A stretch of 55,256 nucleotides of DNA from a virus: the IMG/VR virus record IMGVR_UViG_3300045988_123498; one strand, written 5' to 3'. Shown piece by piece: positions 2,342 to 55,256 of this stretch. A program made the position numbers and the translations under genes. Under the pieces are notes generated by a model that saw nothing but the letters and a program-made list of their open reading frames with translations, had not been told where the DNA came from and ran no database searches. Position 1 is the first letter of the stretch; the number at the start of each line of letters is the position of its first letter.

Positions 2342-2369
2342 AAAAATTCCTCCGATAAAATATAGTTTT

Positions 2370-2438
2370 GGGTATTTATCCCATAATATACCATGTTTTC
2401 GTCGCAAAAAAGAACACCCACTGTTTTTCAAGTGAGTG
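2370..2438 (-). promoter_or_regulatory. Terminator-promoter cassette G (hairpin 2415..2438)
   Basis: Hairpin plus TTGCGACGAAAACATGGTATATTATGGGATAAATACCC. It terminates 2460..2648. Confidence 0.6.
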
Positions 2439-2459
2439 CCCTAGTTTGAGTTTTACTTT

Positions 2460-2648: not shown

Positions 2649-2673
2649 AGCATCCTCCTAAAATATAAAGTAT

Positions 2674-2711
2674 GGATTTTACTCCATAATACACTATGTT
2701 TTTATCGTTTA
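2674..2711 (-). promoter_or_regulatory. Cassette H, promoter-like block only (overlaps holin stop)
   Basis: Minus strand reads TAAACGATAAAAACATAGTGTATTATGGAGTAAAATCC. Confidence 0.45.
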
Positions 2712-2959
2712 GGCTCCTCGTACGTCATCGCTAGGTCTGAATCTGATATACCGTTAGTAGTCGGGTCATTAACAATACCTAAAATTGTTAAAATTATAAA
2801 TACTGTAGAAACTATGTCGAGTAACGAAGACGATATACCGCTAAGGTCTAAATTGAGACCGAATAATTTACATACCTGCGTTACAAGTAAAATAACAGCG
2901 GGTATCATGGTCGTCCAAAATAACTTGTTCTTTAACCTAACTTTAAAATTTAATTTCAT
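2702..2959 (-). CDS. Holin, phage LL-H / phiLC3 family
   Basis: 85 aa. The sequence MKLNFKVRLKNKLFWTTMIPAVILLVTQV...LGIVNDPTTNGISDSDLAMTYEEP matches the characteristic phiLC3-type holin pattern (two TM segments, then IVNDPTT.G..DS..A..Y..P). Confidence 0.85.
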   Translation of the reverse strand: MKLNFKVRLKNKLFWTTMIPAVILLVTQVCKLFGLNLDLSGISSSLLDIVSTVFIILTILGIVNDPTTNGISDSDLAMTYEEPKR

Positions 2960-3222
2960 ATATCTTTCTCCTCAATGAGCTTTTCTATGTTGTTTAATCT
3001 TTTTTCTAAGTTACATATTTTAACAGAACAAACTTCATATGACGTGCGTAAGTTGTATAGTTCAGCAGCAATGTGTTCGTATGATAATGTATTCTGTTCT
3101 ATCTTTTTTTCTATCTGAGTTAATCTATAATTGGTGAGCTTGTTCGCCGTAAGTATACCGCCGAATGTTCCAATTATAGTGCCGATAAATGATAGAATAG
3201 CAACTAAAATTGTATTATCCAT
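2956..3222 (-). CDS. N-terminally membrane-anchored coiled-coil protein (lysis-cassette neighbour)
   Basis: 88 aa with TM segment ILVAILSFIGTIIGTFGGIL followed by a heptad-like region. Its stop overlaps the holin start. Confidence 0.75.
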   Translation of the reverse strand: MDNTILVAILSFIGTIIGTFGGILTANKLTNYRLTQIEKKIEQNTLSYEHIAAELYNLRTSYEVCSVKICNLEKRLNNIEKLIEEKDI

Positions 3223-25941: not shown

Positions 25942-26811
25942 TTAACCGATATGATAACCAACCCATTTGTCGAATTTACGAGCGCTCTCTTTGTTACGAC
26001 GTCTAACAGTCTTGTCTCTGGCTCCGTTCCTCCATATATCAGATAAATACTTTGCGTCTTTATCTGATATAGGCAAAGCTTTATGGAAAGATACATCGTT
26101 ATTATTAAAAAGTATCATCGACTCAACGAAATTTTGTCTTTTGTTATCGCTACCGAATTTTACATCAAAATCGTCGATGATAGCATTATAACCTTGGTCG
26201 CTTAAGTTTTTAAAGAAAGCGCGCTTAGCTTTCGAATCTTCCATGAAAGTTCCTACGAATGAAATGTATGCTCTATCTAAGGCGTCGTCTTTTTCAATGT
26301 TTTTAACTTCATTTAAAAACTCTTTAACTAATTTATTTCTATAGACTTTTTCGCCTTTATCGATACCGGGTTCATCAGCTTTATACATCTCTTTAGCAGC
26401 ATCCTTAACCTTTAAACCGTCAAACGATTTAATAAACGCATCCATTACTTTCTCATAAGATGGTATAATTACATTCTTATTTAATTTCATCGTTGCTATT
26501 TCACCGGTGTCATTATTTACCATTTCGACATGCAATCCAGCGCCGTCTAGTCCAGCACTAGCAGAAGCGTAATTAAAAGCGTCAATTTTGTCGAGAGTCA
26601 CATACATTCTGCGACCCGGTTCCTTGGTATGAAATTGTCCTTTTTGTTGAACTCGATATACTTCGGTACCTTTATCGATTTTTATATCATTGTCTCTATC
26701 TTGTCCGAGAAACTTTCCGTGTTTTCCTTTAGGATAAGGTTGATAACGTCTAATGCCCCACTTTTGTCCTTTTACGCCATGGTGATATATCTCATTATTT
26801 ACGCATATCAT
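25942..26811 (-). CDS. Protein with N-terminal YHHGVKGQKWGIRRYQ motif
   Basis: 289 aa with the same N-terminal motif as 23381..24853. Confidence 0.85.
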   Translation of the reverse strand: MICVNNEIYHHGVKGQKWGIRRYQPYPKGKHGKFLGQDRDNDIKIDKGTEVYRVQQKGQFHTKEPGRRMYVTLDKIDAFNYASASAGLDGAGLHVEMVNNDTGEIATMKLNKNVIIPSYEKVMDAFIKSFDGLKVKDAAKEMYKADEPGIDKGEKVYRNKLVKEFLNEVKNIEKDDALDRAYISFVGTFMEDSKAKRAFFKNLSDQGYNAIIDDFDVKFGSDNKRQNFVESMILFNNNDVSFHKALPISDKDAKYLSDIWRNGARDKTVRRRNKESARKFDKWVGYHIG

Positions 26812-29606: not shown

Positions 29607-30230
29607 TTACATATTTCTTATAATATTTTACAACTACAGACAAGAATTTATACAAGGAGGAAGACTTTTATTATGCATTGGAGGAAGATACATAAGGTTT
29701 TTCTTGTCTGTATGTGTAAAATATCATAGAAACATGGTACTTTTTATACACTTTTTCAGTATTTTTTTAGAAAAATATCCCTCCGGAGATTTTTCTAGGA
29801 GCCGCCCGATGCAAGGAGGGGGGGTTGTTTTTCAGACCCCCCCGGGGTGCTACAAACGACGCTGCGGTGGGGTAAAGCTGCTTTTCAGTAGAAGAAAAAG
29901 TGTTTGAAAAAGAAAATAATGTATACGAACCGTTCTACCCCCGACGTTCGTCAACGAAACACTTTTGTTTGCGTAACACAGCGGTGTACCTATAAGATTA
30001 AGCTTTCTTCATACTAAATAAAATATTTTACCCCGTAACGGTATGCAGCGTCACAAAGAAATTGGCATTTAATTTTTTTAATTTTTTTAAAATTTTTTAA
30101 TTGTTTAAACGTTTTTCTTTTTAATTAATTCAAACAACAAACAATTCTTTTTGTTTTAATTAGATAAAACTATTTGTTAATTTGTTTTAGTTAATCATTA
30201 AACGTTTAGAAAACTATGGAATAAAAGACA
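29607..30230. other. Largest non-coding region (624 bp): putative late-operon control region, ori or pac candidate
   Basis: No credible ORF. It contains an 11-bp IR (29636..29646 / 29701..29711), a 30-nt AT hairpin (29768..29797), a G7/C7 hairpin (29818..29843), a GC-rich stretch to ~30050 and an A/T-tract block (30060..30230). Confidence 0.6.
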
Positions 30231-30520: not shown

Positions 30521-33433
30521 TTAACCCCCCTTTATTATATTTGATACGGTAGATGTTGATATTCCAAAGCGTTTAGCAATTTCCTTTAGTGTATAATTGC
30601 TATTCGCCATGGCTCGGATGGCTGATTTACGGGCATCAGTGAGACCGTCATCGCCCTTGGGTCTAAGTTTTTCCCTTAGTACGTCAGGGTCAGAATTGTC
30701 TAATATTTTCTTGAGGTCGTTTTCCGATATAGCCCTATTTTTAATAGCTTCCCATTCCGGGTCTGATATTTTTATATTTCTATCGCTACGTTTTATAGAC
30801 CCTACAAGACCCCTATATTTAACCATAGTATTCTGGGAGAGCTTTTTAAGGTCTTTCGTAGGCATGTCGTTACCACCGTGCTTTTCCTTATACGCGGTAC
30901 GTATTCCTTCTATTTCTGAAGTGGCTAGACGGATAGCTGCACGCTCTCTAGGTCTATTCAGGAGTGCTGAATCCAATTTTCTCTTAAGAGATTGTACCTC
31001 CTCCGCATATTTAGATGTAGCTACGGGGTCTCTTTTTGCTTTCTCTGAGAATACGGCATTTAGACGTGCCTGATTTGCTAGTGATTTTAGAGTAGACGCA
31101 TAATCAGCGTATAGATTCTCCATTACAGTGTTAGATGTAGAGATTAAAGTCCTCGGGTCATCAGTAGCAGCCATTTTAGTAATTTTTGTTTTCTTCTCGA
31201 CCTTTTTAACCGAGATTAATTCACCAGTTTTAGGGTCGTACTTTTTAAATGTTGCAATTTGGTCAGGGTCTTCCTGCCATATTAGAGAACCTTCAGGTCT
31301 TGATGGGTCGTACCAAGGTTTTCCTTTAACATTAACTTTAGGGGAACCTTTTCTACGAGGAACATACTCGACGCTTTTAGCTCTTGTTAACAAAGTAGAA
31401 GCACCGCCTGTTTTTCCGTTATCTTTAATCTGATACTTATCTTTTAAATCTTGTATATTATACTCGTAATAAGCAGCTTTGTAGTCCAACCCGTGTTTTT
31501 CTGCATCAATAACTACCATAGAGTATTTAACAGCACGTTCCAGCTCATCATCAGATGCTCCGAGAATCGTCATGTCACTAATTAGATTAGTTGCTACACC
31601 CATTTGCTTTTGGGTATCAAGCATACCTTTAAACTTTACTCCATTACGCTCATAAATCTTGGTGTCTCCGACTGTTTTAACCAAATTACCTTGGAATTTG
31701 TCTTTAGGGTCGAATCCCTTTAAACCAGCTAACGGTGCAGTCGATAAGATGTTAATCTTTCCTTTAGGGTCGTTTGTCGGAATACACATTACAGTATCTC
31801 CGTCAAAGTCTGCACCTGACAATCGAGCTGCAACTTCTGATGTTATACCAACAGCATCGATAGATGAAGGTCCAATAACTTTTTCGCCTTCTTTATTACG
31901 GTTATTAACTGTTAGTATAGGTATTTCAAATGTTCCGCCGTGAGGATACCTTACCAAAGCTAATTTAGTTCCGTTTTCATACCTAGGTGCATAAATTTCG
32001 TTGTTCCTAAGTGAATTTATAGGAAGGATTACGTTATAGTGTTGGTCAGGAAACGCTGCCGCTTGAAGTGTTTCAGATTGCTTATCACACGATTCTGCAA
32101 ATTTATTTAAATAATATCGTTTTACTTCTGGTACATCATACGACATTATCTCAGCCAATTCATCTTTTTTATCAGCTATAGCTAAATCTATTTGTTTTTT
32201 AGCTAAATATTTTGGTTGTTTAGATAAAAACTGGCTAGGAACGGCTTTTTTCCATTCGTCCCAATCACCTTCTTCTCTAGTTTTATTAATAGGAGAAAGT
32301 TTCTTTTTACCGTCAGAATCTATGTATTCATACTGACCGTCAGCTTTAATCAAAGCTCCGAATGGATTGTTAGGGTCATCTTCTTTTATACTTTTCAATA
32401 CTTCATCAAACGATTTATTTGATGACTTATTGGTGTTAAATATTACATCAACACCGTCAGGCATATCTTTACCATCAGAATAAACCGCCATACCCTTAAG
32501 GTATTTATCTTTGCCAACAAGAATACGAACCTGCGAATACAATGAATTACCCAGAGATAAATCTTTGACCCCTCTTCGTATTTCTATTAAACCATCTTTT
32601 TGAATACCTTTAAATCCATCAGGACCAACATCGTCAGCGTATCGAATCATAACCCTCTTTCTATCAAGAGAAGCAGGATATTGGGTTTTTCTAAAAGTTT
32701 GACCACCGTCGTCAGATGTATATTCCATTAACGAGTTAACTTTTCCCCAGTCATCAAATATTTCTCGATGTTCAGTGCCCGGCGGACATGCAACTTTCAT
32801 CGTAGTAAATTTTTTTCTATTAGTAGGTTGCTCTACTCGTCCACCATAGATTTCATACCCTTTTGATTTAAGTATAGTCAAAGCTTGATTCATTTTTTCC
32901 TGACTTATTCCAAGCTCTCGACATACGTCTGTACCGACGTCAACCATACCAATTTCATCGATTCGATTCTTTATGAATTCAGCTGCATTTTTAGCCTGCA
33001 GCATCCTTCGTTTAGAATCAGCGTCGAACAGAGATTTAACTGTCGATAACGGTATTCCAGTCTTTCTTGAAATTTCAGAATCGTTAAGACCATCTTTTCT
33101 TAAAGACTCAACTCTATAGACATCGTAAAGACGTTTCTCGTCCTTAGCTATACCTATCTGACTCCTTAATTCAGTAGATTTAATACCAAGAACCTTTGCT
33201 ATAGCATTATCGCCAGTATACAGCTCTCCGTCTTCGTCCGTGTATGTATATTTTTCTTTTCTAGCCTGTTTAATAAAGTCTAGAAAGTCTCCTGGATGTT
33301 TATACCAACTTTCATGTTGAAAAGGATTTTCACCAGACCCCCAAGGATAACGTCCGGAACGTCGAGGCATACCTATATGTTCTATGTGACTTTCATTTTC
33401 ATAAATATCATTGAAATCATATGATATGTTCAT
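30521..33433 (-). CDS. Candidate single-polypeptide two-barrel RNA polymerase (YonO / crAss gp66-like) with HTH domains
   Basis: aa ~306-336, GKDKYLKGMAVYSDGKDMPDGVDVIFNTNK, is beta-like. aa ~494-552, VRYPHGG...AVGITSEVAARLSGADFDGDTVMCIP, is beta-prime-like. DFDGD is encoded at 31796..31810. Several HTH-like segments are present, including the C-terminal LKEIAKRFGISTSTVSNII. Confidence 0.55.
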   Translation of the reverse strand: MNISYDFNDIYENESHIEHIGMPRRSGRYPWGSGENPFQHESWYKHPGDFLDFIKQARKEKYTYTDEDGELYTGDNAIAKVLGIKSTELRSQIGIAKDEKRLYDVYRVESLRKDGLNDSEISRKTGIPLSTVKSLFDADSKRRMLQAKNAAEFIKNRIDEIGMVDVGTDVCRELGISQEKMNQALTILKSKGYEIYGGRVEQPTNRKKFTTMKVACPPGTEHREIFDDWGKVNSLMEYTSDDGGQTFRKTQYPASLDRKRVMIRYADDVGPDGFKGIQKDGLIEIRRGVKDLSLGNSLYSQVRILVGKDKYLKGMAVYSDGKDMPDGVDVIFNTNKSSNKSFDEVLKSIKEDDPNNPFGALIKADGQYEYIDSDGKKKLSPINKTREEGDWDEWKKAVPSQFLSKQPKYLAKKQIDLAIADKKDELAEIMSYDVPEVKRYYLNKFAESCDKQSETLQAAAFPDQHYNVILPINSLRNNEIYAPRYENGTKLALVRYPHGGTFEIPILTVNNRNKEGEKVIGPSSIDAVGITSEVAARLSGADFDGDTVMCIPTNDPKGKINILSTAPLAGLKGFDPKDKFQGNLVKTVGDTKIYERNGVKFKGMLDTQKQMGVATNLISDMTILGASDDELERAVKYSMVVIDAEKHGLDYKAAYYEYNIQDLKDKYQIKDNGKTGGASTLLTRAKSVEYVPRRKGSPKVNVKGKPWYDPSRPEGSLIWQEDPDQIATFKKYDPKTGELISVKKVEKKTKITKMAATDDPRTLISTSNTVMENLYADYASTLKSLANQARLNAVFSEKAKRDPVATSKYAEEVQSLKRKLDSALLNRPRERAAIRLATSEIEGIRTAYKEKHGGNDMPTKDLKKLSQNTMVKYRGLVGSIKRSDRNIKISDPEWEAIKNRAISENDLKKILDNSDPDVLREKLRPKGDDGLTDARKSAIRAMANSNYTLKEIAKRFGISTSTVSNIIKGG

Positions 33434-34285: not shown

Positions 34286-34371
34286 TGGTACTCGTGGTGG
34301 GACTTGAACCCACATGAATAAAATTCGACGGATTTTAAGTCCGTTGCGTATGCCAATTCCGCCACACGAGC
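34286..34371 (-). tRNA. tRNA-Leu(UAA): tRNA-Leu (anticodon UAA), type II with long variable arm, CCA encoded
   Basis: GCTCGTG-TG-GCG-GAATTGGCATA-CGC-A-ACGGA-CTTAAAA-TCCGT-CGAATTTTATTCAT-GTGGG-TTCAAGT-CCCAC-CACGAGT-ACCA. All four stems pair and the T-loop is TTCAAGT. Confidence 0.93.
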
Positions 34372-34404: not shown

Positions 34405-34468
34405 CTCATCTATTCCTATCATAAAAGGACTTGTTTTTCTCGTCACCCCCTTAACCGAAAAACTTCTC

Positions 34469-34560
34469 GTGGCCAAAAACCCACTTTTTTTCGATAAAAC
34501 TTTTTTATTAATAATATTAATAATAATAATCATAAAGAAAAAAAGTGGGTTTTTGGCCAC
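34469..34560. repeat. Perfect 23-bp inverted repeat around a 46-nt pure A/T spacer
   Basis: The arm gtggccaaaaacccacttttttt (34469..34491) is the exact reverse complement of aaaaaaagtgggtttttggccac (34538..34560). Confidence 0.85.
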
Positions 34561-34564
34561 AGAA

Positions 34565-34660
34565 GCATTTTTACCCCCAAATAATATATTATTTTGCCCA
34601 AAAACACCCATTTTTGGCCTATTTTTGGCATTTTTACCCCCAAATAATATATTATTTGCC
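34565..34660. repeat. Direct repeat x2 of ~33 nt
   Basis: gcatttttacccccaaataatatattatt(t)tgcc occurs at 34565..34598 and 34628..34660. Confidence 0.85.
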
Positions 34661-34670
34661 TATTTTTCGT

Positions 34671-34823
34671 GCCCACTTTTTTTTCCAAAAGTGGGCAGAA
34701 AATGGCAAAAGTGGGCAGAAAACCCAATAATTTTGAAATATAAATATTACATTTTATGAGTATTTACCACTTTTGCCCACTTTTGCCCACTTTTATGCCC
34801 ATTTTTTTCACAAAAAGTGGGCA
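34671..34823. repeat. Iteron cluster AAAAGTGGGCA(G/A), at least 7 copies in both orientations
   Basis: gtgggca at 34691, 34711 and 34817. tgcccac at 34671, 34774 and 34784. Variant atgccca at 34795. The IR arms carry the related AAAGTGGGTT. Confidence 0.8.
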
Positions 34824-34841
34824 GAGATTTTTGCTAATTTA

Positions 34842-35189
34842 TCATCGTCTACACCAAGTATCGTCATGTTTATTGAAGTAATCTTCAAGCCACATGATAC
34901 TAGATTCCACGACATCTGCTGGGTTATACTTACTACCTTCACTACTCTTTGGCATTACGTCATACAAAATTTTCAGATACTTAATTACAGTATTTTGATG
35001 ATAAACAAGCCTGTCTTCAGGAAGTCTACCGGTCATAGCTATTTTCAAATAATTAGCTGCTTCCCTGAGTAAATCTGTATAAGCGATAAAGTTATCTGGA
35101 ATATCATCAGGTTTAAAATTATCTATCATATGTTCACTGACGAATTTAATAAAAACGTAGCATTCTTCGATGCTAATTCTCTTCTTCAT
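34842..35189 (-). CDS. Hypothetical 115-aa protein
   Basis: Track ORF. Its ATG lies inside the end of the 43-aa ORF upstream. Confidence 0.75.
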   Translation of the reverse strand: MKKRISIEECYVFIKFVSEHMIDNFKPDDIPDNFIAYTDLLREAANYLKIAMTGRLPEDRLVYHQNTVIKYLKILYDVMPKSSEGSKYNPADVVESSIMWLEDYFNKHDDTWCRR

Positions 35190-38715: not shown

Positions 38716-38934
38716 TTAATTATCGTCGTGTTCCTTTATAGCAGTGAGGAATTCTTGAACATCGTCCAACGTCAGGTTAATGGCCGTAATACCTTCTACG
38801 TCACAATCAATGAAATACTTAGGATAGTGATATGTTCCATTATCGTCGTGAATTTCAAGTTTATACATACCGTCATCGCATTCGATAACATCTACTATGT
38901 ATGTACGATGTGAAGTATAAATATAATTTTCCAT
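38716..38934 (-). CDS. Paralog family protein (72 aa)
   Basis: MENYIYTSHRTYIVDVIECDDGMYKLEIHDDNG...AINLTLDDVQEF. An alternative ATG lies at 38949. Confidence 0.8.
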   Translation of the reverse strand: MENYIYTSHRTYIVDVIECDDGMYKLEIHDDNGTYHYPKYFIDCDVEGITAINLTLDDVQEFLTAIKEHDDN

Positions 38935-38975
38935 AATTATCTCAATCATTTTAAATATGAAAAATAAGTAGTATA

Positions 38976-39194
38976 CTACTTTTTATCGTGATTTTTTATT
39001 GCTCTGAAGAACTCTTGGACGTCGTCCCACGTCAGGTTAATGGCCATAGAGCCTTTTACATCGCATTCTTTAAACCATTTTGGATGAATGCAAATTCCTG
39101 CGTTATCGTATATCGCGAGTTTATAGAGACCATCATCACATTCGAAATATTCTATTCTGTACCAACGGCGAGGTGTGCTAATTACTTTTTCCAT
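38976..39194 (-). CDS. Paralog family protein (72 aa)
   Basis: MEKVISTPRRWYRIEYFECDDGLYKLAIYDNAG...AINLTWDDVQEF. Confidence 0.85.
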   Translation of the reverse strand: MEKVISTPRRWYRIEYFECDDGLYKLAIYDNAGICIHPKWFKECDVKGSMAINLTWDDVQEFFRAIKNHDKK

Positions 39195-39212
39195 AATAAT
39201 TTTCTCCTTATT

Positions 39213-39485
39213 TTAAAACTTTTTTCCAAACAATATTAAAATCAAGTAGTATACTACAATGATAATAATAGACGCGAGAAGAGAGAAGAATTCGAATATA
39301 TATCCAGTAACTGCCAATATGAATGGTGACATCAAAAGTAAGAACGCCAATAAGCTTGACAGACAGTCAAAGATTTTCCTACTAGTAGAATTGTTCGGAC
39401 ACGACAACTCTATCCTATGAAAGATACCGATAAAGATAAACGTTGTGAAACACGCAGCAACAAAGAATATTAAAAATTTTTCCAT
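39213..39485 (-). CDS. Membrane protein (90 aa), paralog of 39683..39961
   Basis: MEKFLIFFVAACFTTFIFIGIFHRIELSCPNNSTSRKIF... against MEKFILGFMAAWAFTFIFTGIFYKIELSCADGSTSRKIF... Confidence 0.85.
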   Translation of the reverse strand: MEKFLIFFVAACFTTFIFIGIFHRIELSCPNNSTSRKIFDCLSSLLAFLLLMSPFILAVTGYIFEFFSLLASIIIIVVYYLILILFGKKF

Positions 39486-41851: not shown

Positions 41852-42043
41852 ATACCCTCTCTAAAATATAAAGAATCTAGTTCTATTTTACGCATCGGAA
41901 CTAGAAAGCGACGGTCAGCTCGCATAGTGGGCATTGTTAAGAGGCATACGAGAGTAAATGACTAGCGCTACTTGTCACCGGCGTTGGCTACGCTGACCCC
42001 AACGTCTAATAGTTATCGAATTGATATTACCCTTTAATCTTGA

Positions 42044-48759: not shown

Positions 48760-49629
48760 TTAGATATACTGCAATACATCGCCTTGGACATTAAAGTCAA
48801 GCCAAATGCCGGGTTCGTAACCATTGATAAACAAACGTTTTGATTCATCTGAAATATCATAGATACCAAAATCAATCTTTGCGTTTTTGTCTATCTTCTT
48901 GCTCCAGCCTACGAGTTGTCCCTGCGGTGTCCTCGGGAATCCGAGCATTTCATACACCTCGTTAAGTGTCATAGTCTTATTTACGCTGAATTTTTCATTC
49001 GCGAACCGTTGCATCTTCAACAGGTAGAATAACCTATCTTCTGCGTCATCAGTCCAACCCGGACTCCCTTTACAGAAGCACCTTGTATAGGCGCTGTGTT
49101 CAGGTTCGATGGTCCTTTCAGTCTGCTTTTTCTTCTTAGACGTAGACCCATCTTCAGGCTGTTTAACATCTTTTACATTGAATCTGAACTGTCTATCGGC
49201 ATCCTCACCGTACTTTTCTTTCACGTTTTCTCGGTACTTATTAAAAGCACTCGAAACTCCGATAAATGCACTACCAAGCGTGAGGTAGCGTTTGTTCAAG
49301 ATACAGTGTGCTCCGACAAACGCAGCAGTTGTAAGACCACCAACGAGTACAGAAGGGATATATGCCTTAACGCATTCGCGAGCGTAAGTTATGTCATTTA
49401 CCTTAGTATCGTTCGCAATATCTTCTTCCGTATATTCGAATGTTTCATCGTTTTTTGCTTCTTCAATGACAGCAGCGATTTCTTCATGCTTCTTCTTAGC
49501 CACAATCTGCTTTTCAGCGCCTTTTTTCACAGAATATCCAAACACACCAAGGCCAATTACGCCCATAGTGGTTAGTGCAGTAGGCAGACACGCCTTCACG
49601 AAAGTTTTTACTGTATTAAATGATATCAT
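48760..49629 (-). CDS. Two-TM protein, paralog family with 51987..52727 and 52915..53637
   Basis: Shared layout: TM1, basic linker, (A/S)Y(I/A)P-TM2, ..(F/Y)(N/S)KY(R/K).. and C-terminal LNE(V/F)Y..L....G..VGW(S/T)K. Confidence 0.85.
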   Translation of the reverse strand: MISFNTVKTFVKACLPTALTTMGVIGLGVFGYSVKKGAEKQIVAKKKHEEIAAVIEEAKNDETFEYTEEDIANDTKVNDITYARECVKAYIPSVLVGGLTTAAFVGAHCILNKRYLTLGSAFIGVSSAFNKYRENVKEKYGEDADRQFRFNVKDVKQPEDGSTSKKKKQTERTIEPEHSAYTRCFCKGSPGWTDDAEDRLFYLLKMQRFANEKFSVNKTMTLNEVYEMLGFPRTPQGQLVGWSKKIDKNAKIDFGIYDISDESKRLFINGYEPGIWLDFNVQGDVLQYI

Positions 49630-50462: not shown

Positions 50463-50503
50463 GAAAAAATATAAAGGAGACTGTGTTTTTAATCACAATC
50501 CCC
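50463..50503 (-). terminator. Intrinsic terminator candidate
   Basis: Minus RNA reads GGGGAUUGUG-auuaaaaa-CACAGUCUCC (10 bp including two G.U pairs) followed by UUUAUAUUUUUU. Confidence 0.55.
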
Positions 50504-50537
50504 TTTACATACCTCCTTTTTTTAATCGTATTGAGTT

Positions 50538-50834
50538 TTATTTAACTTCTTCTCCGTCACAATCAATCACATCACAGTCGTTGATGTCAACAACCTTTTT
50601 TCTGTTTTTGTGCTCCTTGATTTTTCTGTCCAGCAGCTTATACAGCTTAATTCCGCCGTAAATAAGACCGCCGATTGCTGCAGATGCACCAATTCCTATT
50701 CCTATTCCTCCAAGCGTTAAGTTTTTCGCTGATGATACTACTGTTTCAGTAATATCAGTTGCACCAACGGTGTTGGTTACCGCATTTTCAACCGCGTTAG
50801 TTACGTGAGTTACGTTTTCGTTGAGTTCGTTCAT
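50538..50834 (-). CDS. 98-aa membrane protein
   Basis: Track ORF with a Gly-rich TM segment, LGGIGIGIGASAAIGGLIYGGI. Confidence 0.8.
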   Translation of the reverse strand: MNELNENVTHVTNAVENAVTNTVGATDITETVVSSAKNLTLGGIGIGIGASAAIGGLIYGGIKLYKLLDRKIKEHKNRKKVVDINDCDVIDCDGEEVK

Positions 50835-50863
50835 AATAAAAATCTCCTTTAAATTTAAAAATT

Positions 50864-50938
50864 GGGAAGTATCCCATAATAGTATTTGTTTTTCTCGTCA
50901 AAAAATAAAACAAAAAGGCCATCGTTTTATTGATGACC
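50864..50938 (-). promoter_or_regulatory. Cassette I: promoter block with a different terminator hairpin (50917..50938)
   Basis: Minus strand reads GGTCATC-aataaaac-GATGGCC TTTTTGTTTTATTTTT TGACGAGAAAAACAAATACTATTATGGGATACTTCCC. Confidence 0.55.
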
Positions 50939-50961
50939 CTCTTGCTTTCTACTTACCTATT

Positions 50962-51114
50962 TTACCTATCATGTATATTATGATGTATACTTCTATGGAT
51001 AGGATGTGTATACGTGTGTCTCAATGCTTCCGCTTCGTCTTTATCTTTCTGCTTGCGTACAGCATTCTTAATTGATATAACACAAATTATTCCAATAATA
51101 AGCCCTACTATCAT
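50962..51114 (-). CDS. 50-aa TM peptide with a His-rich tail
   Basis: MIVGLIIGIICVISIKNAVRKQKDKDEAEALRHTYTHPIHRSIHHNIHDR. RBS is GGAGGATACT. Confidence 0.5.
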   Translation of the reverse strand: MIVGLIIGIICVISIKNAVRKQKDKDEAEALRHTYTHPIHRSIHHNIHDR

Positions 51115-51139
51115 AGTATCCTCCAAGTTTTAATTTTTT

Positions 51140-51176
51140 GGTAGTATCCCATAATAGCGTTTGTTTTTCTCGTCAG
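51140..51176 (-). promoter_or_regulatory. Cassette J, promoter-like block only
   Basis: Minus strand reads CTGACGAGAAAAACAAACGCTATTATGGGATACTACC. Confidence 0.45.
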
Positions 51177-51304
51177 TTTGTGCTTGTCTCGTACTTTTTT
51201 ATTTCTGCCGATATTTCTTTTTTCATATCGTTTTCCAAATATCTTGCGATAAGAAATCCGCCTATCATATCACAGATTGTTCCTAAAGCGTTAAACACGT
51301 TCAT
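51173..51304 (-). CDS. 43-aa peptide
   Basis: MNVFNALGTICDMIGGFLIARYLENDMKKEISAEIKKYETSTN. RBS is AGGAGGAAGATTTGAAA. It overlaps the end of the ThyX-like gene. Confidence 0.45.
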   Translation of the reverse strand: MNVFNALGTICDMIGGFLIARYLENDMKKEISAEIKKYETSTN

Positions 51305-51974
51305 TTTCAAATCTTCCTCCTGTTATAAGCCAACTGTTAGGTAGCTCACGTATTTTTTTACAAAAACTAATCCATTCGTACAATTTATGAGACTTTCGCT
51401 CATTATACATCTTGTGTAATGCCTCGTAACTAAGCATCACGGTTCGTTTTTGATTATACGAACTAGGTAGTGTCTGTATAATCTGCCACCAATATTTTTT
51501 ATCCATTGTTTTTAAATATAAATCGCGATTCTTGTTTAAATAATCGATTATATTGTCTAGACAATTGAAATCAGTTAACATATCAGCGCTAAAATCTTCT
51601 CGCACGAATTTTTTAGCTGTTATCTTATGCATAGTTGAGCACGAATTACTTACAGTTCCAACTTTATATGTGTCGAACTCTTTCCACCAATATAGTGGTG
51701 CGCAAATATCCATATAAACAACTATCATTCTCATAAATTTTCTGTGCGACGGTCCAGCCTTGACAAGTTGATTCATCAAAGTTGTGTCATTGTACCCTAG
51801 AAAATATACATGGTCTGCAGGTTCAACATGGAGCTCAGTTTCGTCTATCATAGCGTCAATACGAGGGATATTATTATACCCACTATCTGATTTGTCCCAA
51901 GAATTCATTGGGTTACGCATCCCTCGTATCGACTCTTCGAAACCGTAAACGCTCACTTTATCTATAGTCAGCAT
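51291..51974 (-). CDS. ThyX-like (flavin-dependent thymidylate synthase fold) protein, divergent
   Basis: SHRKFMRMIVVYMDICAPLYWWKEFDTYKVGTVSNSCSTMH aligns by eye with the ThyX H..LEH....F.I.G.SR.....L.RHR..S..Q.S.RY. The RHR triad reads TYK. Confidence 0.35.
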   Translation of the reverse strand: MLTIDKVSVYGFEESIRGMRNPMNSWDKSDSGYNNIPRIDAMIDETELHVEPADHVYFLGYNDTTLMNQLVKAGPSHRKFMRMIVVYMDICAPLYWWKEFDTYKVGTVSNSCSTMHKITAKKFVREDFSADMLTDFNCLDNIIDYLNKNRDLYLKTMDKKYWWQIIQTLPSSYNQKRTVMLSYEALHKMYNERKSHKLYEWISFCKKIRELPNSWLITGGRFENERV

Positions 51975-51986
51975 TATCGATTCTCC

Positions 51987-52727
51987 TTACAGCAATTGCG
52001 GTTCTTCAAACGACAACATCAAGACGTAAAAATTCTCGTCTATACAAGCTCTACGATGCCAAAAATGCACTTCTTCGTCAATCCACCACAAAGATTGCAT
52101 ACTTATAGGATATTCGTCGTCATAATAGTTCTTAAGTACAATGTCCATGTCCAATTGTCTATAAAAATCTATAACTGAACACCTTCCACGTTTTCGTACA
52201 ACTTCATTTACATAATGCTCAGCTGTCAGGAGTTCATCCATCGTAGTCTCCATGTATGATAAAGTAAACATGTCATAGACAAGTATAGTATCAGGGTTAT
52301 CATCAGATATAGTTAAACCCATATCTTTTACATCTTGTCTAGCGATGTCTTCCTCAATTTTATCCTTAAGTCCTGCCTTTTCCAACGCAGAATTGATTTT
52401 GTCTTTGTATTTACTGTAGGATGCATTCGCAAACGTGTACAATCCAATCAAAGACGCCTGTTGTCTGTTGGACAGAATTGTATTTCCAATGATGCTAGCT
52501 ACTGTACCTATTCCAGTAGCTATTACAGGAGCATACGATTTGACGTCACTAATAACAGCATCTTTTTTTGTGAAATCGTCTCCCTTCTGTTTTTTCAACT
52601 CTTCTTTTCGTTGTACAGCTTTTGGAGTTATTTTAGCCGTAAGTACGATAGACGCTACCGTTCCTACAACGCTCAAAGCACTAAGAATATAATTCCCATT
52701 TTTTTTAAAAAATTCGCTGAAACTCAT
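51987..52727 (-). CDS. Two-TM protein, paralog family (see 48760..49629)
   Basis: 246-aa track ORF with motifs KSYAPVIATGIG...SYSKYKDKI. Confidence 0.85.
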   Translation of the reverse strand: MSFSEFFKKNGNYILSALSVVGTVASIVLTAKITPKAVQRKEELKKQKGDDFTKKDAVISDVKSYAPVIATGIGTVASIIGNTILSNRQQASLIGLYTFANASYSKYKDKINSALEKAGLKDKIEEDIARQDVKDMGLTISDDNPDTILVYDMFTLSYMETTMDELLTAEHYVNEVVRKRGRCSVIDFYRQLDMDIVLKNYYDDEYPISMQSLWWIDEEVHFWHRRACIDENFYVLMLSFEEPQLL

Positions 52728-52897
52728 TTTGACACCTCATCTTTAACTTTTTTAAATTTGTTCTTTACAGAATTTTTAAACGACGTCCACTTTGCAGGAT
52801 TCCGTTTTATGATGATAAACGCTGCGATACCGACCGGGATAATTATGTTGGTTGTCCACAGTCGTATTTCCCTCATCAGTTCCACATTCCTACTCAT
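52724..52897 (-). CDS. 57-aa single-TM protein
   Basis: MSRNVELMREIRLWTTNIIIPVGIAAFIIIKRNPAKWTSFKNSVKNKFKKVKDEVSK. RBS is GGAGGCATAATCAT. Its stop overlaps the next start (ATGA). Confidence 0.55.
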   Translation of the reverse strand: MSRNVELMREIRLWTTNIIIPVGIAAFIIIKRNPAKWTSFKNSVKNKFKKVKDEVSK

Positions 52898-52914
52898 ATG
52901 ATTATGCCTCCAGA

Positions 52915-53637
52915 TTAATAAGAATTGTTAAAATTGTATACAGGGTCGCTACTATATGAAAATACCAGCACCGGATACCCGTGCTTTGACTTTTCGTAAT
53001 GATACACAATATCAAGACCATCACCAGAACGTCCATACTCCTTGGACGTCCAGCCGACTATATCTCCAATATCTGAACCATCTTTATCTAGATACGCATA
53101 GAACTCATTTAATGAACACGCATCATAATTCATTATGTCTCTATTTACACTATTAATAGCTCGTTCGAGACTTAAGATATTCGAATAAAAATATCTTCCA
53201 GAATACGAGTCATAGCACATCATCTCATCCATCTGGCGTATGTCATTAGGCGAAGGCGTTGAATCATTGGAATCCATAGATTTCTTATTAGCTTTCTCTT
53301 GTATCGTGTCCTTAACTTCGTTAGAAACCGTGTCTGCAACCGCAGATTTATAACTAGAGAGCGCATTCTGTGTCACTCCAACCAGCGTAGACGTAGCTAC
53401 GATTGAATTATTTAATCCAATAGCACCTGCGATTATCGCTCCTGACGACGTAACAACATTAATCGCGACAGGAATATAGCTCTTCCATGTGCTCTTTATT
53501 TTTTCTTTTCTGGAAATCAACTTATCAGAATACAAATTAGCGTGCTTTTTGCCAATGTTGAAAAGCTGGATTCCAGAAAATATCAATCCACCGATTCCAG
53601 CTCCAATTAAAATGTTAGATTTTAACCTGTTATTCAC
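52915..53637 (-). CDS. Two-TM protein, paralog family (see 48760..49629)
   Basis: 240 aa with a GTG start at 53637. Motifs KSYIPVAINV...SSYKSAV...LNEFYAYL...IVGWTSK. Confidence 0.8.
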   Translation of the reverse strand: MNNRLKSNILIGAGIGGLIFSGIQLFNIGKKHANLYSDKLISRKEKIKSTWKSYIPVAINVVTSSGAIIAGAIGLNNSIVATSTLVGVTQNALSSYKSAVADTVSNEVKDTIQEKANKKSMDSNDSTPSPNDIRQMDEMMCYDSYSGRYFYSNILSLERAINSVNRDIMNYDACSLNEFYAYLDKDGSDIGDIVGWTSKEYGRSGDGLDIVYHYEKSKHGYPVLVFSYSSDPVYNFNNSY

Positions 53638-53705
53638 TTTTGAAACAATAGAACAGACTGTTTAATCTGTTCTATTTTACCTCCAATCTTATTTTTCTTT
53701 GAATG

Positions 53706-54008
53706 TTACTTCGTCAACTTCTTAAACAAACTCTTTGCTGCTTCCGAAGTGAACATACTATCACCGCTGTATTCGACGAACAGCGACAGCAAAAATACAA
53801 ACGTACTCACCCCTATAGGGACGAGTGACGAAACAATCTCTCTACGCTTTGTATAAGCGTCGGTCGATTTAATTATTGCCTCTCTAATCCTTATTAGTCT
53901 AGTTAGTATTTTGTCATATTTGTCGTCGTTTACGTCAAGCTTATTAAGCTCGGTCAATAGTCTTCGCTCCTCCGCTTTGAGAGCCTGAAAATTCGTTTTT
54001 TTCTTCAT
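53706..54008 (-). CDS. 100-aa C-terminally TM-anchored protein
   Basis: Start at ATG 54008 after GGAGGAGTTT. The track start 54080 runs through cassette K. Confidence 0.8.
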   Translation of the reverse strand: MKKKTNFQALKAEERRLLTELNKLDVNDDKYDKILTRLIRIREAIIKSTDAYTKRREIVSSLVPIGVSTFVFLLSLFVEYSGDSMFTSEAAKSLFKKLTK

Positions 54009-54032
54009 AAACTCCTCCAAAAATATAATTTT

Positions 54033-54101
54033 GGTATTTATCCCATAAAACAACATGTTTTTCTGGTAAAACAAGAACACCCACTGTATTTCAAGTGAGT
54101 G
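54033..54101 (-). promoter_or_regulatory. Terminator-promoter cassette K (hairpin 54078..54101)
   Basis: Minus strand reads CACTCACT-tgaaatac-AGTGGGTG TTCTTGTTT TACCAGAAAAACATGTTGTTTTATGGGATAAATACC. Confidence 0.6.
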
Positions 54102-54124
54102 CCCCGTTTTGGGTTTTAAACTTC

Positions 54125-54316
54125 TTAGTTGATATTCGTCTGGTTTGTAATTATTTCACTCAGACCATACGAAACGTCAGTTAATAGACTGAGGATGTCC
54201 CTATATTGATTATCTAGAATCTGCGCGGAGTTTCTCATACTCCACAGATTCTGAATCACCAATATATTTGCGGTGATGCATTCCTCATATTGTTTCTTCG
54301 TCTTTTCGTCGTTCAT
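54125..54316 (-). CDS. 63-aa hypothetical protein
   Basis: Start at ATG 54316 after GGAGGATTTATGTT. The track start 54391 runs through cassette L. Confidence 0.75.
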   Translation of the reverse strand: MNDEKTKKQYEECITANILVIQNLWSMRNSAQILDNQYRDILSLLTDVSYGLSEIITNQTNIN

Positions 54317-54342
54317 AACATAAATCCTCCAAATATAAATTA

Positions 54343-54412
54343 GGAAATAATTCCCATAACAGTACATGTTTTTCACGTTAAAATGAAACACCCACTGTAT
54401 TTCAAGTGAGTG
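54343..54412 (-). promoter_or_regulatory. Terminator-promoter cassette L (hairpin 54389..54412)
   Basis: Hairpin plus TTTAACGTGAAAAACATGTACTGTTATGGGAATTATTTCC. Confidence 0.55.
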
Positions 54413-54429
54413 CGCTCATGGTTAACACC

Positions 54430-54600
54430 TTATCTTTTTCTTTTTCTTGTTCTTATTTTTTCAGCGATATGCATAATTATAACGCTTAATGAAAATATCT
54501 CCATCAATGTTAGTAACGCGTACAGATATACGCCTACAAACAAACTTCCTGTGTTATTATAAATAATTTCCACAAGCGCTTTCCATGCTCCGGTGAACAT
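54430..54600 (-). CDS. 56-aa membrane peptide with a basic tail
   Basis: MFTGAWKALVEIIYNNTGSLFVGVYLYALLTLMEIFSLSVIIMHIAEKIRTRKRKR. RBS is GGAGGATTATT. Confidence 0.55.
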   Translation of the reverse strand: MFTGAWKALVEIIYNNTGSLFVGVYLYALLTLMEIFSLSVIIMHIAEKIRTRKRKR

Positions 54601-54626
54601 AATAATCCTCCAATAAAAATATAATT

Positions 54627-54695
54627 TTGGTATTTATCCCATAAAACGACCTGTTTTTCTTGTCAAACAAGAACACCCACTGTATTTCAAGTGAG
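54627..54695 (-). promoter_or_regulatory. Terminator-promoter cassette M (hairpin 54672..54695)
   Basis: Hairpin plus TTGACAAGAAAAACAGGTCGTTTTATGGGATAAATACC. Confidence 0.6.
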
Positions 54696-54716
54696 TGCCT
54701 TTGGTTTTGATAATCC

Positions 54717-54857
54717 TTATTTTTTCTTTACACCATGAATGTAAATTCGTCTAACTTCCTCTTTTATCATCTTACGTTGTTGTTTTTTGTTTCCTATTGC
54801 GCTTAGCACGCCTCCAGCAAAAGAACATACAAGTCCGATAATAATTAAAGTTGCCAT
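54717..54857 (-). CDS. ~46-aa single-TM peptide (3' end approximate)
   Basis: ATG 54857 follows GGAGGAAACAGTT. It reads MATLIIIGLVCSFAGGVLSAIGNKKQQRKMIKEEVRRIYIHGVKKK. The stop lies in a long A/T run that I could not place exactly by eye. Confidence 0.35.
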   Translation of the reverse strand: MATLIIIGLVCSFAGGVLSAIGNKKQQRKMIKEEVRRIYIHGVKKK

Positions 54858-54890
54858 AACTGTTTCCTCCAAGTTATAAAAATATTATTA

Positions 54891-54959
54891 GGATTTTATC
54901 CCATAATAGTACATGTTTTTTTCGTCAAAAAGGAACACCCACTGTATTTCAAGTGAGTG
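54891..54959 (-). promoter_or_regulatory. Terminator-promoter cassette N (hairpin 54936..54959)
   Basis: Hairpin plus TTGACGAAAAAAACATGTACTATTATGGGATAAAATCC. Confidence 0.6.
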
Positions 54960-54960
54960 C

Positions 54961-55032
54961 CCAAAGGAAAATTAAAATATGAAACTTTATTTTATTACAT
55001 AAGTTTCCTCCTTTCATAATAAAACTATATCA
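54961..55032 (-). ncRNA. Candidate small RNA: a complete promoter-to-terminator unit without a credible ORF
   Basis: Only ~72 nt lie between cassette O and the hairpin of cassette N. They contain the stem GAAACTT-atgtaataaaata-AAGTTTC, and SD-ATG-TAA sits in its loop. Confidence 0.3.
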
Positions 55033-55101
55033 TATATTTACTCCATAATATACTATGTTTTTTTCGTCAAAAAGGAACACCCACTGTATTTCAAGTGAGT
55101 G
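55033..55101 (-). promoter_or_regulatory. Terminator-promoter cassette O (hairpin 55078..55101)
   Basis: Hairpin plus TTGACGAAAAAAACATAGTATATTATGGAGTAAATATA. Confidence 0.6.
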
Positions 55102-55120
55102 CCTTTTCGGTTTACCTTTT

Positions 55121-55186
55121 TTATTTTTGTCCGTTAGATACTATCAAATATACTCCCATGACTAAGAGTATTATACCAAGAATCAT
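55121..55186 (-). CDS. 21-aa hydrophobic peptide
   Basis: MILGIILLVMGVYLIVSNGQK. RBS is GGAGGAAAGAT. It is driven by cassette A across the genome junction and terminated by cassette O. Confidence 0.4.
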   Translation of the reverse strand: MILGIILLVMGVYLIVSNGQK

Positions 55187-55256
55187 ATCTTTCCTCCTAC
55201 AATATTTATTAGGTATTTATCCCATAATATACGATGTTTTTATCGTCAAAAAAAAG
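55170..55256. repeat. Terminal direct repeat, right copy (identical to 1..87)
   Basis: Exact 87-nt match to the window start. Confidence 0.9.

Follow-up and report, generated by a model that had tools for sequence, protein, structure and literature searches.

A siphophage promoter class, probably read by a phage RNA-polymerase-like protein, and the covarying stem at its predicted start

The DNA analyzed here, IMG/VR virus record IMGVR_UViG_3300045988_123498 (55,256 nucleotides from a gut phage, referred to as the window), carries many copies of a short block that precedes small open reading frames (ORFs) and also stands at the head of the operon for a 970-aa RNA-polymerase-like protein. From comparison of related phages, we consider it likely that this block is a promoter class of a supercluster of siphophages, and that it is read by the phage protein and not by the host sigma-A holoenzyme. 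The window, with a GC content of 36%, represents a circular phage genome (55,169 bp) whose assembly carries an additional overlap of 87 bp. Its ends, 1..87 and 55170..55256, form an exact 87-bp direct repeat, which shows that the assembly is circularly closed; because of this overlap, promoter copy 1 is counted twice. The minus strand carries all genes of the window.

The cassette region was read on the minus strand as 2711..1 joined to 55256..50863, and 15 unique copies of the block lie there. Each cassette has the same order: a hairpin, CACTCACTTGAAAWACAGTGRGTG, with a T-run, then the block, a short inverted repeat, an AT-rich leader of 15-25 nt, the ribosome-binding site (RBS) GGAGG, and a small ORF. 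The terminator-like hairpin is present in 11 copies of near-identical sequence, loop included, and it has the GC-containing stem, followed by a T-run at gene 3' ends, of an intrinsic terminator. Between 50500 and 55256, 9 terminator-like sites were counted in comparison with 1.9 expected, and 6 of them were the conserved hairpin. The T-run of each hairpin in 54078..55101 extends into the next promoter, where it gives the TT of "TTGACG". The conserved terminator was not present downstream of the promoters at 51176 and 50901, which probably feed the replication genes.

The block reads (TT)GACG-N-AAAACA-N5-(T/A/G)nTTATGG, and its form in the cassette region is (TT)GACG-N-AAAACA-N5-TATTATGG. The window has 16 unique copies of it, every one on the minus strand (Table 1). 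A preliminary description, made from this DNA alone, had placed the block in the cassette region, a range that proved incomplete, since the 16th copy lies beyond it at the head of the polymerase operon. Within the part that had been named as the most invariant, TTATG was indeed found in 16/16 copies, as was AAACA upstream of it, but TATTAT was not invariant: its first two bases were TT or TG in 5/16 copies. Exact TTGACG was seen in only 8/16 copies. The string TTATGGRRWW occurred 24 times (3.7 +/- 1.9 expected), on the minus strand every time.

The geometry of the block was then compared with that of a housekeeping-sigma promoter, from which it had been said to differ, and the difference was borne out. 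A recount gave the same spacing of 14 nt between TTGACG and TATTAT in all copies, whereas 16-18 bp are expected between TTGACA and TATAAT. The hexamer at the 17-nt spacing is TATGGG, which lacks the -7 T, and TTATGG stands at 16 nt. The base equivalent to the -11 A, the second of the hexamer, is T or G in 5/16 window copies and T in the FP_oengus-type consensus cTTTAT. A start 5-9 nt past the -10 hexamer also appears not to apply, judged from the tRNA-like gene junctions and the stem position described below. A sigma-70 scan of 50500..55256 called 26 sites, compared with 19.5 +/- 4.6 in shuffles, and none was at a cassette promoter; none of the copies was called. The scan of the whole window found no strong canonical promoter in any intergenic region. 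In relatives, the sigma-like hexamers were not kept, but the ACA-N5-TTATG core was. Other placements were also tried. A -35 at TTTTTG, an extended -10 (TGn), and a -10 at GATAAA, TAAAAT or the A-rich 6-mer were rejected as inconsistent across copies or lineages, and sigma-B-like GGGWAW and extracytoplasmic-function-type readings were rejected because no fitting upstream element was present at the right distance.

The same promoter design was found in other phages. The degenerate pattern C(G/A)-[6 nt, >=5 A/T]-A(C/T)A-N5-YWTWRT-R was counted per strand and in shuffles. On the coding strand it matched 10 times in this window, 5 times in Faecalibacterium phage FP_oengus, 9 times in Lactococcus phage 1706, 6 times in Arthrobacter phage Mudcat, and 9 times in Streptomyces phage Scarif; the other strand gave 0, 0, 0, 1, and 0 matches, and the shuffle means were 0.37, 0.03, 0.37, 0.03, and 0.00, respectively. 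All five phages encode a member of the 970-aa protein family, and the ACA-N5-TAT spacing is identical in all of them, across five host genera and GC contents of 34-59%. Phages without the protein family (Lactococcus phage TP901-1, and the 50-kb SPbeta segment with yonO) gave 0 coding-strand matches. FP_oengus (50% GC) has a syntenic small-ORF array in which each ORF follows (T)GACGCGAAAAAWNCAG-N4-CTTTATGGAG and a variable inverted repeat; here the sigma-like hexamers are replaced by GACGCG and CTTTAT, and ACA-N7-TTATG is retained. The block takes the form GCA-N3-TTTTACA-N5-TATAGTAGAA in 1706 (34% GC), CGCG-WAAATT-ACA-N5-TATAATGA in Mudcat (45% GC), and TCGCA-WATTTT-ACA-N5-TATAGTGAGACCCC in Scarif (59% GC).

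For co-occurrence with the gene, the pattern was counted around polymerase homologues in 80 IMG/VR loci, each with a homologue at its centre (849 kb in total, each locus at most ~15 kb). The coding strand had 81 matches and the other strand 4, and at least one match was present in 59/80 loci. In most of them the variant CG-AAAAAA-ACA-TGCCC-TTTTATG-AAGAGAG was found ~950 nt upstream of the polymerase gene, the place at which the orthologue of copy 9 is conserved in relatives. The unverified GenBank record MT835495 encodes the closest GenBank polymerase (51% identity), yet it has 1-2 motif copies, adjoining the polymerase gene, and its deposited scaffold has no cassette array. The fixed architecture across five lineages and the co-occurrence with the gene indicate that the design tracks the phage lineage and its polymerase, and not the host sigma factor. 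Together with the unconserved sigma hexamers, these data support the original proposal of a dedicated phage promoter paired with the 970-aa candidate.

To locate the start of transcription, IMG/VR was scanned with the promoter pattern, which covered at least 120 loci from oengus-like gut phages and yielded 304 unique promoter-like sequences. At 23 unique junctions a tRNA-like gene directly followed the promoter, beginning at G(0) of TTATGG in 16 and at G(+1) in 7. The junction in FP_oengus was confirmed by ARAGORN and by the Rfam tRNA model (47.9 bits); a terminator before this gene and a T-run after it mark it as a stand-alone unit. A -10 box ending at T(-1) would start RNA ~6 nt inside the acceptor stem, which argues for initiation within or right after the hexamer, and such a start inside or just after "TATTAT" would be incompatible with a -10 role. 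Promoters of phage polymerases start in this manner, whereas sigma-70 promoters do not. That transcription starts on or beside the G run, as first suggested, fits the tRNA-like genes that begin at that G. The conserved block runs contiguously up to the boundary between TTATG and the last G. We place the start, by inference, between A(-2) and G(+1), the A of TTATGG being the simplest choice.

Two further features were noted at the start. The tRNA-like genes at FP_oengus 2935..3006 and at other oengus-like loci have a 6-nt anticodon loop and form stand-alone units, each opening at the promoter's G and closing with a T-run, which ARAGORN labels "tRNA-???" with the two-letter anticodons ga, tc, ca, aa, and ta. 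If RNA began at the A of TTATGG, most window transcripts would open with the mini-ORF AUG GGA UAA or AUG GAG UAA, for example at 55225..55217 and 2687..2679. The ATG is not kept at that place in the promoters of 1706, Mudcat, and Scarif, so the mini-ORF is probably incidental.

The inverted repeat that follows the block was analyzed in the window and in relatives. Five such repeats had been quoted before, and all are present in the window, but the stem begins one base earlier than described, at the T of TTATGG, and often with a G·T pair (examples are TGGGAT/ATCCTA, TGGGAA/TTCCTA, and TGGGA/TCCCA). A hairpin beside the predicted 5' end is formed by 13/16 window copies. The covariation claimed for the repeat was weak inside the window, where the 5' arm is nearly constant, but became strong once relatives were added. 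The mean fold energy of the window copies over their own 24 nt was -3.67 kcal/mol, in comparison with -2.50 kcal/mol for chimeras with swapped 5' arms (p=0.0145) and -1.02 kcal/mol with shuffled 3' parts (p=2.7e-6). Among the relatives, the sequences themselves averaged -2.34 kcal/mol and the chimeras -1.14 kcal/mol (p=4.5e-7). Among 251 non-tRNA promoters of relatives, 91 had a stem of >=4 bp (>=2 of them G-C) starting at T(-1) and 60 had one starting at G(0), whereas ~3 were expected by shuffling. The outermost pair was at T(-1) in 87/104 hairpin-bearing sequences, and the arm pairs were diverse (TGGAG/CTCCA, TGGAC/GTTCA, TGAGAT/GTCTCA, TGGAAGG/TCTTCCG, GAACC/GGTTC, and TGAAGAAC/GTTTTTCG).

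Because the loops vary, a fixed-column covariation matrix was uninformative, and anchored-stem profiles, the chimera test, and a covariance model were used instead. The covariance model of promoter plus stem gave 275 matches in 530 kb. In the window it gave 15 matches, which correspond to 14/16 unique copies and nothing else; the copies at 54369 and 1028 were missed. In the alignment to this model, which is biased towards structure by the fitting and in which many relatives' sequences are phylogenetically redundant, 93.3% of cells were paired compared with 84.6% in shuffles (0/500), and 37 cells had double changes compared with 12.4 in shuffles (0/500); slid controls were 20-57% paired. Of 83 distinct sequences, 53 have UA as the first pair, 24 have UG, and 5 have CG; the wobble pairs point to a stem in RNA and to a start no later than T(-1). 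The stem was absent from the polymerase-operon promoters, from 3/16 window copies, and from the promoters of 1706 and Scarif. Many promoters of the class thus do not have it, which makes it a property of the transcript and not of promoter recognition, and on comparative grounds it is probably a 5'-terminal RNA stem and not a DNA hairpin of the N4 type.

A second pairing was observed in the oengus-like promoters, whose spacer is often CCTCC or CTTCC. These anti-Shine-Dalgarno-like strings are complementary to GGAGG or AAGGAG just downstream, and 55-64 such spacer-to-downstream stems were observed compared with 14-32 expected. RNA that reads through from upstream could thereby have its downstream RBS masked.

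The candidate for the reading enzyme is the 970-aa protein, whose match to PHROG 4291 ("RNA-dependent RNA polymerase") spans residues 12-968 of 970. Its gene is the last of an operon in which copy 9 is followed by tRNA-Leu, an endonuclease, an exonuclease, and the 970-aa ORF. The protein carries the loop SGADFDGDT. This loop was unchanged across 25 close homologues, and the 1706 and Mudcat proteins retain it as well; the FP_oengus protein in the loop alignment ended before the loop. It is a single polypeptide with helix-turn-helix (HTH) domains at both ends, and the C-terminal Sigma70_r4/HTH region was found in 25/25 homologues. The preliminary description had been reminded of T7-like promoters; the candidate, however, is not T7-like and has the GADFDGD loop of two-barrel RNA polymerases, a group whose single-chain phage forms include YonO, crAss gp66, and P23-45 gp64, and Pfam and PHROG scans of the large ORFs detected no T7/Pol-I-type single-subunit RNA polymerase. 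No other window ORF among those tested in these scans had a DxDGD loop or a sigma or polymerase domain. A polymerase fused to the tape-measure protein, in the style of P23-45, was considered and rejected, since the 2515-aa tape-measure protein has no DxDGD and matched only tape-measure/lysin profiles.

The distribution of the family was examined by tblastn (E<=1e-5), which found 250 phage records, all in the clusters of this supercluster: Arthrobacter (95), Gordonia (55), Streptomyces (54), Lactococcus (13), and Faecalibacterium FP_oengus and others, with identities of 44.5% for FP_oengus and ~42% for Mudcat. Protein searches gave more than 8,000 homologues, and at least 596 IMG/VR stretches encode a relative. 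The protein has been reported as the signature gene of an Actinobacteria/Firmicutes phage supercluster, with an HHpred probability of 95.7% to Pfam RdRP (RNA-dependent RNA polymerase) PF05183; the DxDGD loop and the HTH domains at the termini were noted in that preprint, and promoters are absent from its text (10.1101/842583).

The N-terminus of the polymerase (33433..33300) has an invariant, predicted disordered peptide, HYGxxRxSGRYPWGSG / HxGMPRRSGRYPWGSG. A look-alike peptide, LQHHGIKGQRWGVRRYQN, was seen three times (24853..24790, ~23980, and 26811..26740) in two structural-module proteins (ORFs 23381..24853 and 25942..26811), and Lactococcus 1706 orf7, annotated as a structural protein, carries LQHRGVIGMRWG. 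The BLASTP similarity was not significant; the peptide may be a shared signal for virion targeting or processing.

Counted from the G of TTATGG as 0, the promoter elements are CG (-23/-22), an A/T-rich 6-mer (-21..-16), an invariant ACA (-15..-13), 5 nt of unconstrained spacer, YWTWAT (-6..-1), and purines from 0 on. From these observations the following mechanism is proposed. The HTH domain(s) would bind the upstream duplex element (CG, A-tract, and ACA), the AT-rich TTAT segment would melt, and RNA would begin within A(-2)..G(+1). The TT of "TTGACG" would largely be the U-tract of the preceding terminator. Each cassette promoter would fire singly, its unit ending at the conserved terminator. 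In the cassette transcripts, the first 4-7 bases from U(-1) would pair with a segment 3-9 nt downstream, and the resulting 5'-terminal stem-loop would most plausibly be a stabiliser against 5'-end-dependent decay (RNase J/Y type). The hairpin-less variant at 34446..34419 would drive tRNA-Leu, the nucleases, and the polymerase, and after circularisation this operon would read into the structural (late) genes. More tentatively, and with somewhat less than even confidence, we suggest that the 970-aa protein could be a self-sufficient, promoter-specific, single-chain two-barrel RNA polymerase whose HTHs read the ~25-bp promoter and which would allow early/middle transcription independent of host sigma.

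Several data weigh against reading by the 970-aa protein. Its AlphaFold model had a mean predicted local distance difference test score (pLDDT) of 65.6 and a predicted template modeling score (pTM) of 0.47, and residues 240-407, where the barrels are expected, had a pLDDT of <50. A Foldseek search of the PDB gave nothing significant (best E=0.47); the list was headed by several RNA polymerase largest subunits at E ~0.5-3 and a probability of <0.1. The family profile searched against all PDB sequences gave HTH matches only, and hhalign detected no relation to SPbeta YonO (probability 0.3-0.4%). The report on the supercluster calls the RNA polymerase activity only potential, and it lists ~10 other gene families common to the whole supercluster (10.1101/842583), so that co-occurrence with the promoter does not single out the 970-aa protein. 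The structural bias and redundancy of the covariance-model alignment belong here as well. The actinobacteriophage promoters have a well-formed TATAAT or TATAGT as their start-proximal hexamer. For actinobacterial sigma-A promoters a -10 box is often nearly sufficient, and use of the promoter by the host in these phages is conceivable. Moreover, the polymerase operon is under the same promoter class, so that the first polymerase molecules must come from another source if only the phage enzyme reads it, and the sigma-70 scans of the window found no host-type promoter. Virion delivery, weak recognition by the host, or an unrecognised promoter in the AAGTGGGCA array upstream of the operon may be that source. 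Because even the polymerase operon uses this promoter class, the virion may bring in the initial polymerase, for which N4, crAss-like phages, and P23-45 are precedents (10.1101/2022.12.01.518664).

The alternatives were weighed against the same data. Host sigma-A might read the block in an unusual geometry, perhaps with a phage activator that binds the CG/A-tract/ACA element and replaces -35 recognition, and the 970-aa protein could be that factor. T4 middle promoters are of this kind, with MotA/AsiA sigma appropriation and a MotA box plus a -10 box, and most phages use the host polymerase for their early genes. In favour of this reading, the block contains a TTGAC-like hexamer together with TATTAT, TATAAT, or TATAGT, the protein has sigma-region-4-like and other HTHs while its polymerase fold is not confirmed, and the polymerase operon needs some initial transcription. 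However, the 14-nt spacing is beyond the 16-18 nt range, the equivalent of the -11 A is missing in the FP_oengus-type copies (CTTTAT) and in 5 window copies, and it is ACA and TTATG that are conserved and not the TTGAC hexamer. A start ~7 nt downstream would truncate the tRNA-like genes, one fixed architecture serves hosts from Lactococcus to Streptomyces, and an invariant GADFDGD loop is hard to account for in a pure DNA-binding factor. Reading by host sigma-A is therefore regarded as unlikely.

Very unlikely, in our view, is the suggestion that the inverted repeat is a DNA-level promoter hairpin, extruded and recognised as in the promoters of the N4 virion RNA polymerase, which the preliminary description had offered as one option. 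The repeat does abut the conserved block at a fixed position, and the weaker CCTCC-GGAGG pairing across the start in oengus-like promoters is possible only in DNA or read-through RNA. But the stem lies at or after the predicted start and not upstream as in N4, its first pair is U·G in 24/83 distinct sequences, which favours RNA, the loop ranges from 3 to 9 nt and the arm sequence is free to vary, tRNA-like genes can replace the stem, and many promoters of the class do without it (those of the polymerase operons, of 1706 and Scarif, and 3/16 in the window). The least probable reading is that the terminator-plus-promoter blocks are recombination substrates that shuffle cassettes, their conservation being due to gene conversion and not to polymerase specificity. 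The near identity of the 11 terminator hairpins down to the loop, the paralogous small ORFs and the three DUF6353 genes between the blocks, and the variation in cassette content among close relatives that keep the blocks would agree with it. Within-genome gene conversion, however, cannot give the ACA-N5-TAT architecture across otherwise differing phages of 34-59% GC, and the strict strand and position relative to the RBS and start codon are left unaccounted for. Recombination is compatible with a promoter class read by the phage protein and is not a true alternative to it.

Table 1. Positions in the window of the block copies, the terminator-like hairpins, and the features of the polymerase operon
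Feature	Coordinates	Strand	First A of ACA	Repeat quoted in the preliminary description	Details
Copy 1	55210..55249	minus	55237 (=68)		TTGACG 55249-55244, ACA 55237-55235, TTATG 55227-55223; stem TGGG/CCTA 55224-55210; sequence recurs at 41..80 via the 87-bp terminal overlap
Copy 2	55043..55070	minus	55058		TTGACGAAAAAAACATAGTATATTATGGAG; no 5' stem predicted
Copy 3	54889..54928	minus	54916	GGATAAAATCC	6-bp stem TGGGAT/ATCCTA (54903-54889)
Copy 4	54628..54666	minus	54654		TTGACA, TTTTATGG; stem TGG/CCA
Copy 5	54341..54381	minus	54369	GGAATTATTTCC	TTAACG, TGTTATGG; stem TGGGAA/TTCCTA; missed by the covariance model at E<=0.01
Copy 6	54032..54070	minus	54058		TTTACC, TTTTATGG; stem TGG/CCA
Copy 7	51139..51176	minus	51164		CTGACG; without upstream terminator hairpin; stem TGG/CCA
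Copy 8	50863..50901	minus	50889	GGGATACTTCCC	last before the replication genes; 5-bp stem TGGGA/TCCCA, -7.0 kcal/mol
Copy 9	34419..34446	minus	34434		GTGACGAGAAAAACAAGTCCTTTTATGA; no 5' stem; heads the tRNA-Leu, endonuclease, exonuclease, polymerase operon
Copy 10	2672..2711	minus	2699	GGAGTAAAATCC	first after the lysis genes; TAAACG; stem ATGGA/TCCAT
Copy 11	2369..2408	minus	2396	GGGATAAATACCC	TTTGCGACG; stem TGGG/CCCA
Copy 12	1920..1957	minus	1945	GGAGTAAAATCC	GGAAACA; stem GGA/TCC
Copy 13	1473..1513	minus	1501	GGGATAAATACCC	TTAACC, TTTTATGG; stem ATGGG/CCCAT
Copy 14	1013..1040	minus	1028		TATTATGAAAAG, degenerate downstream; no stem; missed by the covariance model at E<=0.01
Copy 15	801..838	minus	826	GGAGTAAAATCC	TTGACT; stem (T)GGA/TCC(G)
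Copy 16	529..568	minus	556	GGATAAAATCC	6-bp stem TGGGAT/ATCCTA
Terminator-like hairpin CACTCACTTGAAATACAGTGGGTG + T-run, 5 copies	55101-55078, 54959-54936, 54697-54674, 54412-54389, 54101-54078	minus
Terminator-like hairpin, 6 copies	2438-2415, 1989-1966, 1544-1520, 1070-1047, 598-575, 113-90	minus			loop variant AAAAACA
970-aa RNA-polymerase-like protein gene	30521..33433	minus			PHROG 4291, 1018 bits
DFDGD codons (aa 542-546, in SGADFDGDT)	31796..31810	minus			putative metal-binding catalytic loop
C-terminal HTH codons (aa 930-968)	30530..30646	minus			Pfam Sigma70_r4 E=8.3e-9, HTH_23 E=3.8e-9
tRNA-Leu (anticodon UAA)	34286..34371	minus			first gene after copy 9

Further features of the cassette region and its relatives were recorded. 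Three paralogous DUF6353 genes lie in the early region, at 48760..49629, 51987..52727, and 52915..53637, and FP_oengus likewise has three, so the family appears to be a hallmark of the cassette region in this phage group; its alignment showed no conserved stretch. After copy 14, in 792..1040, ~200 nt follow without an ORF or Rfam match until the next promoter, and either a small non-coding RNA or the remains of a cassette might lie there. A megablast search of the cassette region against GenBank phages gave no match. The loose IMG/VR pattern AAAACA-N7-TTATGGRRTA gave mostly chance matches, but four near-identical relatives were found with it. A search for the host in the genome collection gave distant homologues only, in Eubacteriales and Ruminiclostridium metagenome-assembled genomes.

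Around the polymerase operon, the AAGTGGGCA repeat array lies directly upstream of the operon promoter (34670..34823; wider array ~34470..34850). The repeat occurs there seven times in both orientations, six times exactly and once nearly so, and has no exact copies elsewhere in the genome. At the corresponding site (~35170-35270), Mudcat carries GTGGCCAAA/GCCCACTTTT repeats. The role of the array might be that of an origin or an operator, or it might contain the host-dependent start that is otherwise missing. On the other side of the operon, a 624-nt AT-rich non-coding stretch (29607..30230) separates it from the structural genes. The polymerase gene of 1706, Mudcat, Scarif, and many metagenomic contigs is 300-400 nt from the right genome end, so this gap is probably the end-joining (cos) region. 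Elsewhere in the window, a 192-nt intergenic stretch at 41852..42043 noticeably exceeds its surroundings in GC content; it contains no ORF, no Rfam family reached the gathering threshold there, and it might encode a structured RNA. The palindrome GTAGTATACTAC has two exact copies (38968..38979 and 39246..39257), each upstream of a paralogous small ORF (set 38716..39485), and could be an operator or a second promoter type; its count was not above chance for a 12-mer with mismatches.

For a large protein family that has so far been only a "potential" RNA polymerase without a target sequence, there is now a concrete promoter with defined elements, spacing, and predicted start. It can be tested in cultivable systems, namely Lactococcus 1706, the Arthrobacter and Streptomyces phages, and FP_oengus. 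If the phage protein does read this promoter, fused HTH domains in place of a sigma factor would give a minimal two-barrel polymerase its promoter specificity. The low-GC "islands" and the many small membrane-protein genes in the middle of these genomes would also be explained, and operons and start sites could be annotated better in thousands of gut and soil phage genomes. If, further, the protein is a self-sufficient polymerase, no smaller promoter-specific relative of the cellular RNA polymerases would be known, and it would offer a ready orthogonal transcription system for Gram-positive bacteria. The 5' stem and the tRNA-like units suggest that the phages also engineer the 5' ends of their own RNAs.

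Phage polymerase/promoter pairs are well known as an idea, and the gene family has been noticed before; no description of the promoter, its cross-phylum conservation, the predicted start, or the 5' stem was found in the searchable literature. Like T7-type pairs, the present system has a contiguous conserved block of ~25 bp that would abut the predicted start, many copies on one strand, and an AT-rich TATA-like segment before a predicted purine/G start (a Streptomyces relative reads CTATAGTGAGACC). T7 gene-10 mRNA has a stem at the transcript start (GGGAGACCACAACGGUUUCCC), and the transcripts here would likewise open with a stem-loop. Unlike the T7 type, the protein has the GADFDGD two-barrel loop and HTH domains, the promoter sequence is unrelated, and the polymerase gene is under the same promoter. 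In N4, the promoter hairpin is a recognition element upstream of +1, with its stem centred near -12 and a 3-nt loop. A small inverted repeat is tied to a phage-polymerase promoter in both cases, but the stem described here runs from ~+1, is variable, includes U·G pairs, and is dispensable for the class. The PeSL (promoter-early stem-loop) cassettes of T4-type phages consist of a terminator hairpin and an ordinary sigma-70 early promoter around small early ORFs. The repeated modules of terminator hairpin plus promoter that flank the small early ORFs here resemble them, except that the PeSL promoters are sigma-70 promoters. Firmicutes 5' stabilisers have a stem within a few nt of the mRNA 5' end, and by analogy the 5' stem of the cassette transcripts may have a stabilising role; its position would suit such a role if RNA began at A(-2)..G(0).

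Among proteins, the HTH + RdRP-like "putative RNA polymerase" of Koert et al. (10.1101/842583) is of the same family as the 970-aa ORF; its activity was predicted there, and no promoter, start sites, or 5' stem were described. YonO of SPbeta is a ~100-kDa single-chain polymerase, distantly related to the multisubunit polymerases, that transcribes a block of phage genes (PMC5467207). The 970-aa protein is of the same size class and has a single chain and a DxDGD loop (FDNDGD at aa 535 in YonO). In contrast to this likeness, the hhalign probability was below 1%, no C-terminal HTH is reported for YonO (PMC5467207), the 250 tblastn records included no Bacillus, and the motif was absent from the 50-kb SPbeta segment around yonO.

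Parallels in promoter design are also seen with phage two-barrel polymerases that work independently of sigma-70. Among the non-virion multisubunit RNA polymerases of jumbo phages, the late promoter of phiKZ is T-3 A T G+1, and that of AR9 is A-11 ACA-N6-U-A/G+1 (PMC7598289). The block shares with them AACA upstream and TATG over the start, and by comparison with phiKZ the G of TTATGG would be +1. The match to AR9 is loose, since AACA is 4 nt further upstream here (AACA-N8-TATG). Unlike those systems, there are extra CG and A/T-rich elements, one polypeptide with HTHs instead of 4-5 subunits, and no uracil DNA. The Thermus phage P23-45 has a virion polymerase fused to the tape measure, gp96, and a non-virion polymerase, gp64, both of the two-barrel type and each with its own motifs, and it is a precedent for starting transcription without the host polymerase (10.1101/2022.12.01.518664). 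The tape-measure protein here has no DxDGD, the motifs differ, and HTH domains are not reported for the P23-45 enzymes. Like P23-45, however, the phage described here is a siphophage with a single-chain candidate two-barrel polymerase, and putative cognate promoters are visible bioinformatically upstream of its early genes.

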